Shown: positions 1 to 4,052 of the stretch, piece by piece
Layout of the letters: each line of letters opens with the position of its first letter
Numbering within the stretch: the stretch's first letter is position 1
IMG/VR virus record: IMGVR_UViG_2713896898_000007
Origin: a virus
Taxonomy: Duplodnaviria; Heunggongvirae; Uroviricota; Caudoviricetes
Length of the DNA stretch: 4,229 bases
Direction: 5' to 3' (one strand)
Made by a program: the position numbers and the translations under genes
Notes under the pieces: model-generated
Told to the model about the DNA's origin: nothing
The model's input: only the letters and a program-made list of their open reading frames with translations
The model's database searches: none

Positions 1-660
1 TTTTGTGCGCTGCTTCAGTATGCTGGTGGCGGTCTGCTCTCCCGGTACGATGTCGCTTTCACGGTACATTGAGCGGATTTTTTCCGCACGCAACCCCAGC
101 GAACGACGTAATACCGCTTCCGGTAGCGCGTCCGCCACCTGATTGCGGACCGCCCACCAGGATAATTCAGCCAGAGATAATTCACGCTCCTGCGTACCGC
201 TTATTGCGTGACCGATGGCGTCAATCATCCATGCTGACAGGTTTTGATGAGCAAGTTGCTCGAGTGATTCGGATGTCTGGTCACGCAGCTGGTTGTCGCA
301 GTGCCAGCACAACACCATTGCGCCGGTACCATAACGGTGAATGACGGTTTCGCTGTGATGATAATCGCCGTGTGGCCACTGGCAGGATTTAATATGGCGC
401 AACAGCCAGTCAGACAATGCACCAGCACCACCAGCAGCACGAATCACCCGTGCGTTACTGAAAAACGGCAGCAATGTTTTGTCTTCCACCAGCGGCTGGC
501 GAACGGCAGGAACGACCCCGGACGGCAGATTACGCATGCTTTTCGGTTCCGGCTCCACCAATACCCGGGTATTGTGGAATACCGGCATGGATTCACGGCC
601 CGGCTTAACGATCACCAGCCCGAGTTCCGGTACCAGAACAGGTCGAAGTAATACCCGCAC
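1..660 (-). CDS. Hypothetical prophage protein, 3'-truncated at the window edge (at least 220 aa); possibly YdfU/DUF968-like by position, unverified
   Basis: I translated the reverse complement of 660..1 by hand: 220 codons with no stop, beginning VRVLLRPVLVPELGLVIVKPGRESMPVFHNTRVLVEPEPKSMRNLPSGVV... and containing CQWPHGDYHHSETVIHRYGTGAMVLCWHCDNQ. Candidate start is GTG at 660..658, one nt after the TAA of the upstream ORF, with GGAGG four nt upstream; an alternative ATG is at 588..586. The plus-strand ORFs 3..344, 301..651 and 479..808 overlap it and look like shadow ORFs of GC-rich coding DNA. Family assignment is a guess from synteny with hok. Confidence 0.6.
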   Translation of the reverse strand, partial: MRVLLRPVLVPELGLVIVKPGRESMPVFHNTRVLVEPEPKSMRNLPSGVVPAVRQPLVEDKTLLPFFSNARVIRAAGGAGALSDWLLRHIKSCQWPHGDYHHSETVIHRYGTGAMVLCWHCDNQLRDQTSESLEQLAHQNLSAWMIDAIGHAISGTQERELSLAELSWWAVRNQVADALPEAVLRRSLGLRAEKIRSMYRESDIVPGEQTATSILKQRTK

Positions 661-1007: not shown

Positions 1008-1039
1008 CCAGGAAAAAACAAAACCCGCCGAAGCGGGTT
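1008..1039 (-). terminator. Rho-independent terminator downstream of hok
   Basis: Minus-strand sequence reads AACCCGC-TTCG-GCGGGTT followed by TTTTGTTTTTT: a 7-bp GC-rich stem with a UUCG tetraloop and a U-tract, about 70 nt after the hok stop codon. Confidence 0.7.
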
Positions 1040-1107
1040 AAGTGCGGGTGCGTTGAGGATGCCTGACACATCAGAGGTGGCGAGGGATTTCTCCCCCGCC
1101 TGGTCTC

Positions 1108-1263
1108 TTACTCCTCAGGTTCGTAAGCTGTGAAGACAGCGACCTCCGTCTGGCCGGTTCGGATTCGTACCTCGCAGAGGTCTTTCCTCGTTACCAGTGC
1201 CGTCACTATGACGGTTAAACAGATGACGATCAGGGCGATTAGCATCGCCTTTTGCTGCTTCAT
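1108..1263 (-). CDS. hokD: Hok/Gef-family type I toxin (51 aa small membrane peptide), HokD/RelF-like
   Basis: Hand translation of the minus strand from ATG 1263..1261 to TAA 1110..1108 gives MKQQKAMLIALIVICLTVIVTALVTRKDLCEVRIRTGQTEVAVFTAYEPEE. This has the hydrophobic N-terminal helix and the conserved TRKDLCEV...GQTEVAVFTAYE core of Hok/Gef peptides. SD AAGGAG sits 9 nt upstream of the ATG. The family call is firm; the hokD paralog assignment (rather than hokC/gef) is from memory of the C-terminal YEPEE and should be checked by alignment. The ORF is below the track's length cutoff. Confidence 0.88.
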   Translation of the reverse strand: MKQQKAMLIALIVICLTVIVTALVTRKDLCEVRIRTGQTEVAVFTAYEPEE

Positions 1264-1437
1264 AGCCTGCTTCTCCTTGACCTTTCGGTCCGTAAGAGGC
1301 TAATCTCTATGTGTCGCATAGATATGGCCTCAGATTAATGTTAAACGTCTTGCAGGACGCGTAATGTTAACTGGGGCTTTTCTCTATCTGCCTTTGGTGT
1401 TCATGCCTGAGACAGATAGCCTCAAGCACCCGCAGCC

Positions 1438-1466
1438 ATTCTACTTAACTCCCGTTACCTCGCCAA
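1438..1466 (-). promoter_or_regulatory. Candidate sigma70 promoter for the hok transcript (TTGGCG-17 nt-TAGAAT)
   Basis: On the minus strand the -35-like TTGGCG is at 1466..1461 and the -10-like TAGAAT at 1443..1438 with a 17-nt spacer. This would give a 5' leader of roughly 170 nt before the hok ATG, similar in length to leaders described for hok-family mRNAs. Motif match only. Confidence 0.3.
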
Positions 1467-1915
1467 TATGAAATCAGTCAGAAAGGCGATCCATAAGAAC
1501 AACAGCAAGGCAATAAATTGCCATTACAGCAGCAATAGCCAGCGCACATTTGAGAACCAGCACCACAACCTCCTGTATTGGACGTACACCAGTCCTGATA
1601 AATATGAGGCTGTCTCGTCAGTGATTCAATACAACTATTGGGTATAGTTTCTGTGATTTTGTTCTGTAGAAATGGAACATAATAACCAGTCACCACCAGC
1701 ACTTCTTTAAATACGCCAAGTCCGACGCAAGCTAACCTTCTAGCCCACTTTGAGCGAGAAGCAGACATTTACTTAACTGGATAGCAAGAGACTTCATATA
1801 TCATGGTTGATCCCGGAGTTTTCAATAATGGAAAGACATTGCCCGTATGATCGGGCCGTAACCACATTAGAAGCAGGTGCCCTTTGTGAATTTTGATTGT
1901 GTCAACCTATCTGTT

Positions 1916-2056
1916 TTGAATTTTTTATAAAAAATATTCGCAAATTTGTGAATTATGAGAGACAAACGAGCATGGACAACCAATGTTACTTTCATACACA
2001 ATGAAGCAACATGATAAAAGTACACTGACTTTAGCAAGTAAATTTAGGAGATTGCG
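1916..2056 (+). promoter_or_regulatory. AT-rich upstream region of the 444-aa ORF with its ribosome-binding site (AGGAG at 2046..2050)
   Basis: AGGAG lies 6 nt upstream of ATG 2057. The region 1916..2040 is about 30% GC with A/T tracts (TTTTTTATAAAAAATATT at 1921..1938) and several weak -10-like hexamers (TATAAA 1926..1931; TG-n-TAAAAG at 2012..2020). No convincing -35/-10 pair, so the promoter position is unresolved. Confidence 0.3.
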
Positions 2057-3391
2057 ATGTTTAGCTTAATCATGGCCGGAGAACCGGACGTTTTTGACCG
2101 CTGGCCGTGTATGGACCCTGGGCTTAAAGAAGGCGAGGAAAGATTCTCGATGTCCCGCATGCTGGAAGGCACCCCAAGCGATATTTACAGTAAATTAACA
2201 CCAATAAGACCCGATACCTTAAGAGAACTCGCCAAGCTACCAGTATTGTTCATGACCGAAACTTATACAAAAGATGATGAATATGATACAAACAAGTACA
2301 TCAGGATCAGACTTGGGGAAATAAGAAATTTACGTAAAGATGGTGGCGATATTTTATTTTCTTTCAAGATTAATCATAATTTTGGAGAAATAACGAATCC
2401 CCAAACGACATTATATAAAGAAACCCTAGGGCTAGGATCTTTCGGGTTAAGTCGTACACATTGGGCAGTAAAAAATAAGGATTTAAATATTGTTCTGGAA
2501 TCACTTGGTTTAAACAAACAAAATAGTCACCTGAAAGGTACAATCAAATTAAAAAAACAAACATACCCAGTAGTCGAGAACATTATAGATTATCTTAATT
2601 TCATAAAGAAAAACTTTCGTGATGGTCTCATTACCTTTTATCGTGGACACTCTAAAAGCTCATATGAGCTTGTCCCCTCTCTTTACAGAAAAAATCAAAA
2701 CGGGACGTACAGGCATCTTGCTTCAGAATCTGATTTAGTACGTGAAATACTCAGCGCAAGACCAAATGAATTTAAGGAGGATAAATTTACGATTGATAAA
2801 CTTGTCCGCATGCAGCATTATGGCTTGCCTACAAGACTCTTAGATATTACATCTAACCCACTGATAGCATTATATTTTGCTTGCTGTTCGAACCCCGATG
2901 AAAACGGACAGGTGATTTCGTTTTCAACAAATAGAAAGAAAATTAAATATTTCGACTCAGATACAGTGAGCTGTATAGCAAACTTATCACTTTTATCTTA
3001 CGAAGAGTTGGAAAAATTGTCCTCCTCTGATTCCAGAAAAGGTAATATGGAGTTATCTGAACTCACTGATAAACTTGCAGACCTTATACAGAATGAAAAA
3101 TCATATTTCAGAAACAGAATAATTCCTGATGACTTAAGGAAAGTTGTTTTCCTTAAGGCTAAAATAAATAATGAACGCATACAATCTCAGGCAGGAGCTT
3201 TTCTTCTGTTCGGACTTGATCCCATTTTACCGGAAACAGATGCTGAGTTTCCTCTTAACAGAGTGGAGATAGCGAACAAAAATAAAATTCTGGAAGAGCT
3301 GGCGCAGCTTAATATATCCGAAAGCACTGTATATCCCAGCATGGAGAAAACGGCAGCAGAAATTACAAAAAAGTTTTTATCGGTATCATAA
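2057..3391 (+). CDS. FRG-domain-containing protein (444 aa) with unassigned N- and C-terminal regions; candidate horizontally acquired defense or abortive-infection gene
   Basis: An uninterrupted 1335-nt ORF in about 32% GC DNA is itself strong coding evidence, since stop codons are frequent by chance at this composition. SD AGGAG precedes ATG 2057. The translation contains FYRGHSKSSYELVPSLYR (aa 194-211, nt 2636..2689) and QHYGLPTRLLDITSNPLIALYFAC (aa 253-276, nt 2813..2884), which I recognise as the FRG-domain motifs (Pfam PF08867, a family of unknown function). The flanking ~190 and ~150 residues were not recognised. The start is ambiguous: in-frame ATG at 2150 is also possible. Confidence 0.85.
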   Translation: MFSLIMAGEPDVFDRWPCMDPGLKEGEERFSMSRMLEGTPSDIYSKLTPIRPDTLRELAKLPVLFMTETYTKDDEYDTNKYIRIRLGEIRNLRKDGGDILFSFKINHNFGEITNPQTTLYKETLGLGSFGLSRTHWAVKNKDLNIVLESLGLNKQNSHLKGTIKLKKQTYPVVENIIDYLNFIKKNFRDGLITFYRGHSKSSYELVPSLYRKNQNGTYRHLASESDLVREILSARPNEFKEDKFTIDKLVRMQHYGLPTRLLDITSNPLIALYFACCSNPDENGQVISFSTNRKKIKYFDSDTVSCIANLSLLSYEELEKLSSSDSRKGNMELSELTDKLADLIQNEKSYFRNRIIPDDLRKVVFLKAKINNERIQSQAGAFLLFGLDPILPETDAEFPLNRVEIANKNKILEELAQLNISESTVYPSMEKTAAEITKKFLSVS

Positions 3392-3418
3392 AGGGATAAA
3401 CTAAAGGCAACGAAAACT

Positions 3419-3434
3419 AAGACTGCGCAGTCTT
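3419..3434. repeat. Perfect 16-bp palindrome AAGACTGCGCAGTCTT in the convergent intergenic region
   Basis: Read directly from the sequence, 28 nt after the stop of the 444-aa ORF. There is no T-tract on the plus strand and only a weak one (AGTTTTCGTT) on the minus strand, so it is a poor intrinsic terminator and might instead be a protein-binding site. Confidence 0.5.
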
Positions 3435-3448
3435 CAGGTGGAAGTGCT

Positions 3449-3490
3449 CACTGGGAACGGTTTCAGGGGCAAAAACTGGAAGTTCCAGTG
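3449..3490. repeat. Inverted-repeat cluster: CACTGGGAAC (3449..3458) pairing with GTTCCAGTG (3482..3490), including the perfect palindrome ACTGGAA-G-TTCCAGT (3475..3489)
   Basis: Read directly from the sequence. The ACTGG(G)AAC core occurs three times, twice direct and once inverted. It could be a long-loop hairpin or an operator-like site. Confidence 0.5.
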
Positions 3491-3629
3491 GGCCTTGAGC
3501 TGCTCCCTATAAATTAACATATCTCAATGTTATCAATATCTGCTTTTGGCACAAAGCGGACAACCACGCTAGCTCTACCCTGTGCCACAAAATGTCAATT
3601 TACATCTGAACTAATGCACTTTAATCTCG

Positions 3630-4052
3630 TCACTTCAATAAATACCGAACATCCCCCTGATAAAACGACAATATGCGCTGCATAACTTCGCTTTTACGAC
3701 ACTCAGTACAAATCATATTATGACGCCTGTCGTAACGACGTATTTCTCCATCAGGTAATGACCAGATAAGGTCCGGATCAACCGCAGATGGTTTCTTCAG
3801 CTTTGCCCTTGAGAGCTTTTTACGGGCATTTTGCCAGTCCTTACGCGCCTGTTCAGACGGGAATAACCCGTAACCAGAGTTGCATACATCGCCACTGGCA
3901 ACCAGCTCTCTGGCCAGAACGCTCATCAGATATCTTGTTGCCCCAGTTTTAGCTTCCAGTTGTCGTAACGTCTCGCGCCCACTCTGGCGTACGAGTTCAA
4001 CAACCTGCCCTTTAATTTTTTCCCGCTCTTCTTGTGTAAAAACTTTTGCCAC
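3630..4052 (-). CDS. Hypothetical prophage protein (140 aa), with a helical, possibly DNA-binding N-terminus and a single C-x2-C near the C-terminus
   Basis: Track ORF MAKVFTQEEREKIKGQVVELVRQSGRETLRQLEAKTGATRYLMSVLARELV...MICTECRKSE...GDVRYLLK. Start is GTG 4052..4050 with AGGAGG four nt upstream; stop is TGA 3632..3630. GC content matches the backbone. The overlapping plus ORF 3880..4089 is judged a shadow. No family recognised. Confidence 0.7.
   Translation of the reverse strand: MAKVFTQEEREKIKGQVVELVRQSGRETLRQLEAKTGATRYLMSVLARELVASGDVCNSGYGLFPSEQARKDWQNARKKLSRAKLKKPSAVDPDLIWSLPDGEIRRYDRRHNMICTECRKSEVMQRILSFYQGDVRYLLK

Follow-up and report, generated by a model that had tools for sequence, protein, structure and literature searches.

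A variable slot between DUF977 and hokD in Qin/Rac-type prophages, bounded by palindromic arms that also occur at P2 fun(Z)

Prophage defence hotspots are a known category, and the described site closest to the one analysed here is fun(Z) of phage P2, reportedly a variable locus of that phage. We studied a stretch of 4,229 nucleotides from a virus of the class Caudoviricetes (IMG/VR virus record IMGVR_UViG_2713896898_000007), which we call the window and whose coordinates are used throughout. The window belongs to the early-right region of a lambdoid prophage of the Qin/Rac type, where transcription runs on the minus strand. Between a DUF977 gene and an intact hokD/Sok toxin-antitoxin locus, it has a slot that is occupied by a low-GC cassette with a gene for an FRG-domain protein and is bounded by two inverted palindromic sequences, here called arms. 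The same arm pair bounds fun(Z), whose cargo is also rich in defence genes and in some strains consists of the same FRG cassette with an identical protein. However, the backbones are different, since fun(Z) lies between genes for tail sheath (FI) and tail-fibre assembly (G), whereas the slot of the window lies between DUF977 and hokD. Vassallo et al. 2022 (PMC9519451) describe fun(Z) as a second hotspot of defence genes in P2-like phages, and no flanking repeats are mentioned in the literature that we found describing this hotspot.

The core of the arms resembles repetitive extragenic palindromic (REP) sequences and REPINs, in that it is a multi-copy intergenic palindrome, with tandem sets, in Alpha-, Beta- and some Gammaproteobacteria. 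It differs from them in being low-copy in E. coli (median 1) and in having a near-identical core across phyla, whereas REPs are lineage-specific. PeSL elements, reportedly mobile regulatory cassettes of T4-type phages, and the boundary sequences that are said to occur in lambdoid phages are likewise short stem-loop repeats that border accessory genes, and they have been proposed to aid shuffling. Their sequences are different from that of the arms, which form an inverted pair, occur in temperate phages of unrelated families, and are members of a family of hairpins found in multiple copies in distant bacteria.

The antiviral hotspots of P2 and P4 (Rousset et al. 2022, PMC9122126) are like the slot in having conserved flanks and variable, often single-gene defence cargo, and in being prophage-borne. 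However, these hotspots adjoin cos, whereas the slot is in a lambdoid element and is bounded by short inverted palindromes. Recombination of cos ends was raised there as a speculation, with the recombination pathway remaining to be validated (PMC9122126), and the same paper mentions neither FRG nor hok. The movement of defence genes between prophage hotspots is an open question, for which the arms give a concrete, testable handle: two hotspots that are otherwise unrelated, among them the classical P2 fun(Z), are each bounded by a sequence pair of 26 to 40 nucleotides, and the exchange joints lie in a 12-nucleotide core. The rearrangement of relBE and hokD discussed below is already published. 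In the literature, we found no description of a lambdoid hotspot between hokD and DUF977, of palindromic arms common to it and P2 fun(Z), or of exchange joints inside such arms.

Inverted arms at the ends of a variable slot

The two arms (Table 1) form the longest and top-scoring inverted repeat of the region and are located at the cargo boundaries. A degenerate 20-mer representing their core has two matches in the window, in inverted orientation, where 0.01 would be expected by chance. Each arm is a hairpin with a stem of 9 base pairs (bp). The arm pair is also the top inverted repeat in five of six related loci, namely the P2 context, a chromosomal island, and Qin-like loci carrying DUF4209, RelA/SpoT or DUF262 genes; the sixth, a DUF5677 locus (L006), yielded no arm pair at the same scan settings. 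In the P2 context the pair is 36 nucleotides long (83%) and its outer 12 bp are perfect. P2-like prophages with other cargo also have arms, and in the reference phage P2 they are found at 15335-15360 and 17430-17455, around fun(Z) and the annotated terminator of the V operon. Arms stand at both slot ends in every context examined, reference P2 included.

The slot itself was surveyed in 5426 complete E. coli genomes. Part of the window is matched by 5011 of these genomes, and the whole arrangement is present in only 28. A spread sample of the genome matches reveals many different genes between the same flanks: DUF5677, DUF262, RelA/SpoT, DUF4209, SIR2, alpha/beta hydrolase, DUF7167 and helix-turn-helix genes, QueH together with an ATPase and DUF1627, and genes for unnamed proteins. 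The cargo can have either orientation. Relative to the window, the breakpoints of these variants mostly fall within 1757-1771 on the left side and within 3526-3539 on the right. PADLOC assigns several of the cargo proteins to candidate defence systems, including PDC-S15 for the FRG protein (residues 166-440), PDC-S33 for RelA/SpoT (5e-119) and PDC-S39 for DUF4209 (2e-102). It also gives an NsnA/PD-T4-2_A-like match for DUF262 (9e-28) and a weak match for SIR2, and no match for the alpha/beta hydrolase, DUF5677 or FlxA. With its conserved flanking genes, its highly variable cargo and its enrichment in known or candidate defence genes, the slot fits a prophage defence hotspot. A preliminary description of this DNA, made from its sequence alone, had suspected such a hotspot with the FRG gene as variable cargo, and the survey bears it out on both counts. 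The uncharacterised cargos of this additional, lambdoid hotspot are candidate new defence genes.

Base composition changes along with the cargo: GC content is ~52% in the left backbone and ~37-37.5% across the cassette, and rises again on the right (47-52% in the flanks). A near-empty slot was observed in strain A20 (L071 1744-2015), where the arms are ~220 bp apart with no gene between them and the inner half of the left arm is degenerate.

The same cassette, arms included, is also present at P2 fun(Z) and in a chromosomal island. In a P2-like prophage it is located between the tail sheath gene and gene G, and the encoded protein (WP_001774471.1) is identical to the Qin-context copy. In the island, the cassette lies beside paoABCD and next to an AAA ATPase/HNH pair. 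Its breakpoints outside the Qin context are at 1748/1751 and 3563/3618 of the window. The FRG copies are colinear in all 28 genomes, with no inverted isolate. The stretch that follows the FRG stop codon (3395-3534) contains a perfect 16-nucleotide palindrome, AAGACTGCGCAGTCTT, which has no T-run and is present in all three cassette contexts (alignment A3). In the island of strain 2452 (L003 6001-9952), the FRG cassette is followed by genes for an AAA-family ATPase and an HNH endonuclease that are Septu-like by composition, by an e14-like remnant (pinE, tfaE), and by a gene with a DGQHR domain. With this content, the region resembles a composite defence island adjoining paoABCD.

Arms are also found beyond these contexts. 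The exact core GCTYTGTGCCAAAAGCRGAC is present in 51 IMG/VR contigs that represent several backbones, and contigs with enough sequence mostly have an inverted partner 0.9-5.4 kb away; several have three arms. Their cargo includes a type IV methyl-directed HNH enzyme (mREase_IV, 1e-139), PDC-S51/DUF3800, a RES-domain protein, DUF5677, and an SMC/LmuB-like ATPase. Among the other backbones, arms are found immediately behind the gene for a lambda-type replication protein P, and also in a site that has umuC-like and SRAP genes on its two sides, and the latter site carries a DUF4209 cassette that is also found in Qin-like phages. One contig with arms directly after the lambda-type P gene (L023 7354-12081) has 4.7 kb of arm-bounded cargo, which encodes an SMC/LmuB-like ATPase and a 469-amino-acid protein whose N-terminus is response-regulator-like. 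This position is that of ren in phage lambda.

Joints within the arms and routes of exchange

Arms from different backbones and with different cargo differ at a few positions. Right arms were grouped according to backbone marker and cargo. Position 8 of the arm distinguishes the backbones, being C in P2 (10 of 10) and T in Qin (23 of 23). What varies with the cargo is position 21, together with the inner flank. In all eight FRG copies, which come from both backbones, they are A plus ATTGATAACA, and with DUF4209 cargo they are G plus ATCGAAT, in Qin-type phages as well as in a third backbone. Left arms exhibit the same split between outer and inner parts. An arm thus goes with its backbone in the outer half and with its cargo in the inner half, which places the crossovers inside the arm. 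Exchange between backbones took place within 12 invariant nucleotides, TGTGCCAAAAGC, and the arms are the only sequence around the cassette that P2 and Qin-type phages have in common.

We propose that cassettes swap between unrelated phages by recombination in this invariant core of ~12 nucleotides. The most plausible route would be short-homology recombination through RecA or through phage annealing enzymes of the Red/RecET type, although a dedicated recombinase might also act. At 26-40 nucleotides, the arms are long enough for annealing recombination of the latter type, and Qin/Rac-type prophages encode an exonuclease region of this kind. Phage enzymes of the Rad52-like kind are reported to carry out relaxed recombination (De Paepe et al. 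2014, as cited in PMC13492144). Taking these data jointly with those on K-12 given below, we consider it likely that the window contains an arm-delimited slot between DUF977 and an intact hokD/Sok locus, that the FRG cassette in it can be swapped, and that K-12 carries a rearranged relative of this arrangement.

Several observations weigh against this explanation. No recombinase gene was seen in or beside the cassette, and no circular form of the cassette was found. A synthetic junction query detected no single-arm empty site of the Qin type among the 5426 genomes, and the smallest slot keeps two arms. Two variants break outside the arm, namely those with SIR2 (1643) and alpha/beta hydrolase (1504). 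The PDC entries of PADLOC are candidates only, and we found no experimental report in the literature of anti-phage activity for the FRG gene or PDC-S15. Finally, the arm core is not specific to phages. Alpha- and Betaproteobacteria, among others, carry it in multiple copies as an intergenic hairpin between housekeeping genes. The primary function of the arms may therefore be a different one, and recombination may occur there only because the arms are the sole common homology.

A more far-reaching possibility, to which we give tentative credence at most, is that the arms are dedicated exchange sites of a cassette system that extends across phage families, such that defence and accessory genes travel arm-bounded among temperate phages and islands with crossovers in the 12-nucleotide core. 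Its hotspots would be P2 fun(Z), the site after DUF977 in Qin/Rac-type phages, the site after P in lambda-type phages, and the umuC-SRAP contexts. Phage annealing recombinases or another recombinase would catalyse the exchange, and the arms would derive from the hairpin repeat family that is widespread across phyla.

This family was followed outside the phages. Among the matches listed, with one genome per species, the core is found in Xanthobacteraceae, Pseudolabrys, Hyphomicrobiales, Nitrosomonadaceae, several genera of Enterobacterales, Vibrio, and single metagenome-assembled genomes (MAGs) of other phyla, often in many copies per genome. The palindrome in those genomes extends to ATGTCCGCTTT-loop-AAAGCGGACAT. 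Hairpins often form tandem sets or triplets at spacings of 45-46 nucleotides; their stems are identical and their loops are GGGTCA, ACCCCCR and GTGCCA (GTDB loci L072-L151; for example, L077 1183-1300, L083 and L149). In E. coli, the core is present in 2311 genomes, at a median of one place per genome and a maximum of 5, and in accessory positions only. The genes next to hairpins in Nitrosomonadaceae and other MAGs, which include those for a symporter, MATE efflux, SDR and TetR proteins, are housekeeping genes as judged by eye, and we therefore dropped the idea of cassette arrays in these taxa.

A different reading is that the arms work as hairpins in their own right, for instance in insulating or processing transcripts or in binding a host protein, and have no role in mobility, with cargo turning over by homologous recombination in the flanks or by illegitimate events. 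The 9-bp stem of the arm and the occurrence of the same family, in multiple intergenic copies among housekeeping genes of many bacteria, both agree with this, as do the flanks of the Qin-like family, which are homologous over hundreds of bases. We nonetheless regard this explanation as unlikely. The folding energies of the arms are unremarkable (z -1.15 to +1.1), and there is no covariation at stem position 4/21 (C-G 36, T-G 22, T-A 7, C-A 15). No T-run follows the arm hairpins, and the P2 record puts the V-operon terminator elsewhere, inside the cassette. Moreover, outside the arm region the P2 and Qin backbones are not homologous, but the same cassette is found in both, joined to them within the arm. 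The missing T-run and the folding scores also led us to reject the arms as intrinsic terminators. A search of Rfam gave no family for the arms at E values up to 1, and searching the literature for the arm sequence as a string gave no relevant paper.

Alternatively, the cassette could be a non-autonomous transposable unit, resembling a miniature inverted-repeat transposable element (MITE) or mobile insertion cassette (MIC), or else a segment on which a site-specific recombinase or an invertase acts. In that case, the arms would be terminal inverted repeats or 26-bp sites that are mobilised in trans. Inverted repeats of 26-40 nucleotides, with a P2-context pair of 36 nucleotides and a perfect outer 12 bp, are compatible with this view. 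The arms also accompany the cargo into three kinds of site, the three-arm contigs suggest adjacent cassettes, and the core is widespread and multi-copy across phyla. However, the P2-context junctions (L004) have no target-site duplication, their flanks being TATCA and AGGCT, and no transposase or recombinase gene lies in or adjoining the cassettes. Both arms are retained in the backbones irrespective of the cargo, each backbone has its own version of the outer halves, and the FRG copies are colinear throughout. Nor was any similarity of the arms to the hix/gix or attC consensus sequences seen. Because there is no recombinase gene, target duplication or inverted isolate, we rank transposition and site-specific recombination lower, and consider them rather improbable.

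Three known types of element were compared with the cassette on this point and rejected. Integron cassettes do not fit arms of 26-40 nucleotides without RYYYAAC/GTTRRRY cores, cargo in both orientations, and a slot with no integrase beside it. A MITE or MIC derived from an insertion sequence would have inverted repeats, as observed, but the P2-context junctions show no duplication and the outer halves are specific to the backbone. Segments inverted by serine invertases (hix/gix/cix) have a similar architecture, but there is no adjacent invertase in the Qin and P2 contexts, and all full-length FRG slots are colinear.

relBE and the rearranged Qin prophage of K-12

The preliminary description had proposed that a single variable slot upstream of hokD holds relBE in E. 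coli K-12 and the FRG gene in the window, a toxin-antitoxin pair having been swapped for a defence gene. Much of what led to this proposal was accurate. In Qin of K-12 MG1655, ydfU, rem, hokD, relE and relB do lie on one strand in the order stated there, and they are followed by ydfV and flxA on the other strand and then by ydfW, ydfX and dicC. The hok gene of the window belongs to the same prophage context as Qin hokD, as judged from annotated relatives, from the order in K-12, and from nucleotide homology, which is confined to 1-957 (ydfU and the small gene) and 1014-1277. The FRG gene is indeed present on the opposite strand. A tblastn search with the K-12 proteins (word size 2, E up to 10) agrees that no RelE or RelB coding sequence is present, the best E values being 0.42 and 0.14 for matches outside 1264-2056.

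Other parts have to be corrected. In the minus-strand pattern of long ORF (open reading frame), small ORF and hokD, the first and last are DUF968/ydfU and hokD (51/51 residues identical to K-12), as supposed, but the small ORF is not rem. The ~790 bp said to lack a convincing gene (793 bp, 1264-2056) hold the hok leader/Sok region, a promoter-like site, a conserved flank, the left arm, and the upstream region of the cassette (1769-2056).

The two loci part within the hok leader. The homology over 1014-1277 spans the hok terminator to 14 nucleotides upstream of the hok ATG, where K-12 relE begins. On the other side, DUF977 has no match at the protein level in the K-12 stretch that includes ydfW and ydfX, and there is therefore no colinearity between the window and K-12 Qin on the right side. 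A relaxed search located two arms in K-12. The first (L002 7982-8007) is 108 nucleotides past the start of relB and inside the annotated ydfV ORF, and the second (L002 8971-8996), between flxA and ydfW, is inverted with respect to the first and has the loop type found on the hok side in the window. The arm-bounded cargo of K-12 is flxA, and relBE lies outside, to the left of the arm pair. The annotated ydfV gene (L002 7898-8203) covers the first arm and the boundary of the flxA cassette, and may be a spurious ORF over a recombination joint.

Since the arm pair encloses flxA with relBE outside, relBE is not an allele of the FRG cassette, but an adjacent replacement that has one boundary, the arm, in common with the slot. 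In K-12, relBE has replaced the hok leader and flank, equivalent to 1278 to ~1742 of the window, and K-12 hokD consequently has no promoter, leader or sok. The Hok peptide encoded by K-12 relBEF is identical to that of the window, where promoter, leader and sok are kept. The window thus shows an intact hokD/sok locus, of which K-12 relBEF is a derived rearrangement. We envisage that K-12 Qin is a rearranged relative in which relBE inserted beside the arm, an event that would have deleted the hokD promoter, leader and sok. Integration of relBE beside hokD, with truncation of hokD, is already published according to the passage of PMC6379469 that cites Ramisetty & Santhosh 2016.

That relBE and the FRG gene share a slot is accordingly largely refuted, and we regard it as very doubtful. 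It is true that both lie between hokD and the replication-side genes, and that the right end of the K-12 relBE block coincides with the arm at L002 7982-8007, which is also where a relBE fragment on a plasmid stops. However, a complete arm pair is found to the right of relBE, around flxA. The left breakpoint of relBE is inside the hok leader (1277), where there is no arm, ~470 bp from the left arm of the slot. In addition, the block hokD-relE-relB-ydfV-flxA is present in 1137 genomes and is monomorphic, rather than one of many alleles. The plasmid fragment (pMB07152_contig_2, L016 2997-3531) consists of relB and a truncated relE with 99.4% identity to the chromosomal copy. It resides in a 75-kb plasmid amid remnants of insertion sequences and transposons, and its homology stops at the arm.

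The idea that the FRG gene is conserved prophage backbone or has a phage housekeeping function is already refuted, in spite of a full-length match of its protein to a PHROG family, because the gene is in the slot in so few genomes when the flanks are in thousands, has a GC content of 37% against 47-52% in the flanks, lies on the strand opposite to the operon, and is found with its cassette in unrelated contexts.

The FRG protein, the hokD/Sok locus and the prophage backbone

The FRG protein (Table 1) has relatives with 100% identity that are labelled Escherichia albertii, which makes this species the probable origin of the window, and full-length homologues at 40-50% identity in Enterobacterales, Aeromonas, Rhizobiales and Sphingomonas. 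An AlphaFold model of the protein has a mean confidence score (pLDDT) of 84, or 87.9 for the N-terminal domain alone, and this domain has a PUA-like beta-barrel fold. At the sequence level there is no match to Pfam EVE, YTH or ASCH, and neither a PDB sequence search nor Foldseek with the full model returned anything significant. Frg is a predicted NAD-consuming effector with an ADP-ribosyltransferase (ART) fold (PMC9503650). PUA-like sensors of modified nucleotides that are coupled to effectors are an established logic in defence. Type IV modification-dependent restriction enzymes (VcaM4I, McrB-N, PD-T4-3) and PUA-Cal-HAD, for example, have PUA/EVE/YTH-like sensors, although their effector is a nuclease or phosphatase and not an FRG domain. 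By analogy, the FRG protein would sense a modified nucleic acid or nucleotide through its PUA/EVE-like domain, and sensing would trigger NAD+ consumption or ADP-ribosylation, leading to abortive infection that protects the lysogen. We consider the chances even that the protein is such a sensor, triggering NAD-directed toxicity as a putative defence. This suggests a sensor-effector logic, with a PUA-like reader and an FRG domain, for the candidate system PDC-S15.

Table 1. Features of the window and the evidence on which they are based
Feature	Position	Strand	Evidence and remarks
DUF968/ydfU gene, 3' part	1..660	-	Backbone; runs past the left end; RefSeq annotation of the 93%-identical XDL stretch; 86% identity to K-12 ydfU
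Conserved hypothetical gene, 92 amino acids	662..940	-	phrog_1212, 1.7e-35, on residues 70-135 of a 135-amino-acid ORF; RefSeq has 279-bp genes there
hok mRNA 3' end	1022..1058	-	fbi element 1046-1058; intrinsic terminator 1039-1022 (terminator scan)
hokD, type I toxin, 51 amino acids	1108..1263	-	Pfam Hok/Gef PF01848, 1.2e-23; 51/51 residues as in K-12 HokD
Upstream ORF, 19 codons	1260..1319	-	TGA overlaps the hok ATG (AUGA); three-frame translation
hok mRNA leader, complete	1261..1431	-	Rfam RF01794, model positions 1-157 of 157, 104.3 bits (gathering score 59), E 8.8e-24
Putative Sok antisense unit	1277..1390	+	TTGACC -35-like hexamer 1277-1282, then hairpin and T-run; read directly from the sequence
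Promoter-like site for hok mRNA	1438..1466	-	TTGGCG-17-TAGAAT; consensus scan; 7 nucleotides upstream of the Rfam leader start
Conserved non-coding left flank of the slot	1467..1742	.	Present in ~1800 genomes; Chi at 1693-1700(-)
Left arm	1730..1769	+	Imperfect palindrome, core 1743-1768 GCCCACTTTGAGCGAGAAGCAGACAT; inverted partner of the right arm
Mobile low-GC cassette, ~1.77 kb	1769..3535	+	FRG gene; own promoter-like site 1973-2002, ribosome-binding site 2045-2050; 93-96% identity in other contexts
FRG gene, 444-amino-acid protein	2057..3391	+	Pfam FRG PF08867, 2.5e-22; PADLOC PDC-S15, 3.5e-99; N-terminal PUA/EVE/YTH-like domain (~residues 1-150), C-terminal FRG
Right arm	3535..3574	-	Core 3536-3561, minus strand GTCCGCTTTGTGCCAAAAGCAGATAT
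Right boundary stretch, arm to DUF977 stop codon	3562..3629	.	P2-context match reaches 3618; alignment A3
DUF977 gene	3630..4052	-	Backbone, last gene of the replication module; Pfam DUF977, 1.8e-28; phrog_142; RefSeq annotation

The hok gene resembles the hok/sok type I toxin-antitoxin loci, reportedly known from plasmid R1 and as chromosomal hokA-E, in its Hok/Gef peptide, its Rfam leader, the pairing between tac and fbi elements, and its terminator. The leader is the region to which Sok is antisense, and it has no counterpart at K-12 hokD. The tac element GGGTGCTTGAGGC at 1431-1419 is complementary to fbi at 1058-1046, with a 1-nucleotide bulge. The locus differs from its relatives in the upstream reading frame. 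They have a long overlapping mok, whereas no such mok was seen in the window, where the frame has only 19 codons and ends at the hok start. This short ORF is a candidate mok-like coupling ORF. The elements assigned to Sok on the plus strand, that is, a promoter, a hairpin and a T-run, are readable by eye and remain putative. A weak Rfam match to isrK at 1018-1099(-) (27 bits, gathering score 50) covers the hok 3' terminator region and most likely reflects terminator similarity only.

The non-coding left flank has 90-95% identity in prophages with other cargo, up to 1757-1771. A 96-amino-acid, Cys-rich ORF at 1478-1768(-) was rejected as a gene; it matches nothing in Pfam, PHROG or PADLOC, and a 1-nucleotide indel between variants shifts its frame. 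In P2-like phages, the sequence that separates gene G from the arm is also similar to the right boundary stretch.

The closest complete E. coli genome is that of XDL, with 97% identity over 98% of the window. The corresponding region of XDL is a lambdoid prophage with the order Q, RusA, DUF968, hokD, FRG, DUF977, a replisome-organizer-like gene, YdaT, cro/cI-like genes, ydfABC and dicB. Annotated relatives similarly have Q, RusA, DUF968, hokD, the slot, DUF977, replisome organizer, YdaT and cro/cI-like genes. Of the 135-amino-acid mechanical ORF next to DUF968, the 92 codons at 662-940 are probably a real small gene and the N-terminal extension to 1069 spurious; residues 1-19 overlap the hok terminator region. 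The small ORF matches an unannotated K-12 stretch between ydfU and rem (75% over 96 amino acids). It was considered as rem and rejected as a different conserved gene, given its phrog_1212 match and a K-12 counterpart outside rem, and rem is absent from the window.

Four Chi octamers (GCTGGTGG) are present in 4.2 kb, where ~0.13 would be expected, at 22-29(+), 428-435(-), 486-493(-) and 1693-1700(-). The last of these is ~45 bp outside the left arm and is kept in Qin-like variants with other cargo (alignment A2). Chi-rich lambdoid phages were described in 2025 (PMC12315714), and we found nothing on the hokD-DUF977 locus in that paper. A second small variable site is located at ~957-1014, between the 92-amino-acid gene and the hok terminator, with breakpoints at 957/987/1038 and 1014/1020. 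Its occupants are rem in H12 (L005), a 130-amino-acid hypothetical protein in XDL (L001 7237-7629), and nothing in the window.

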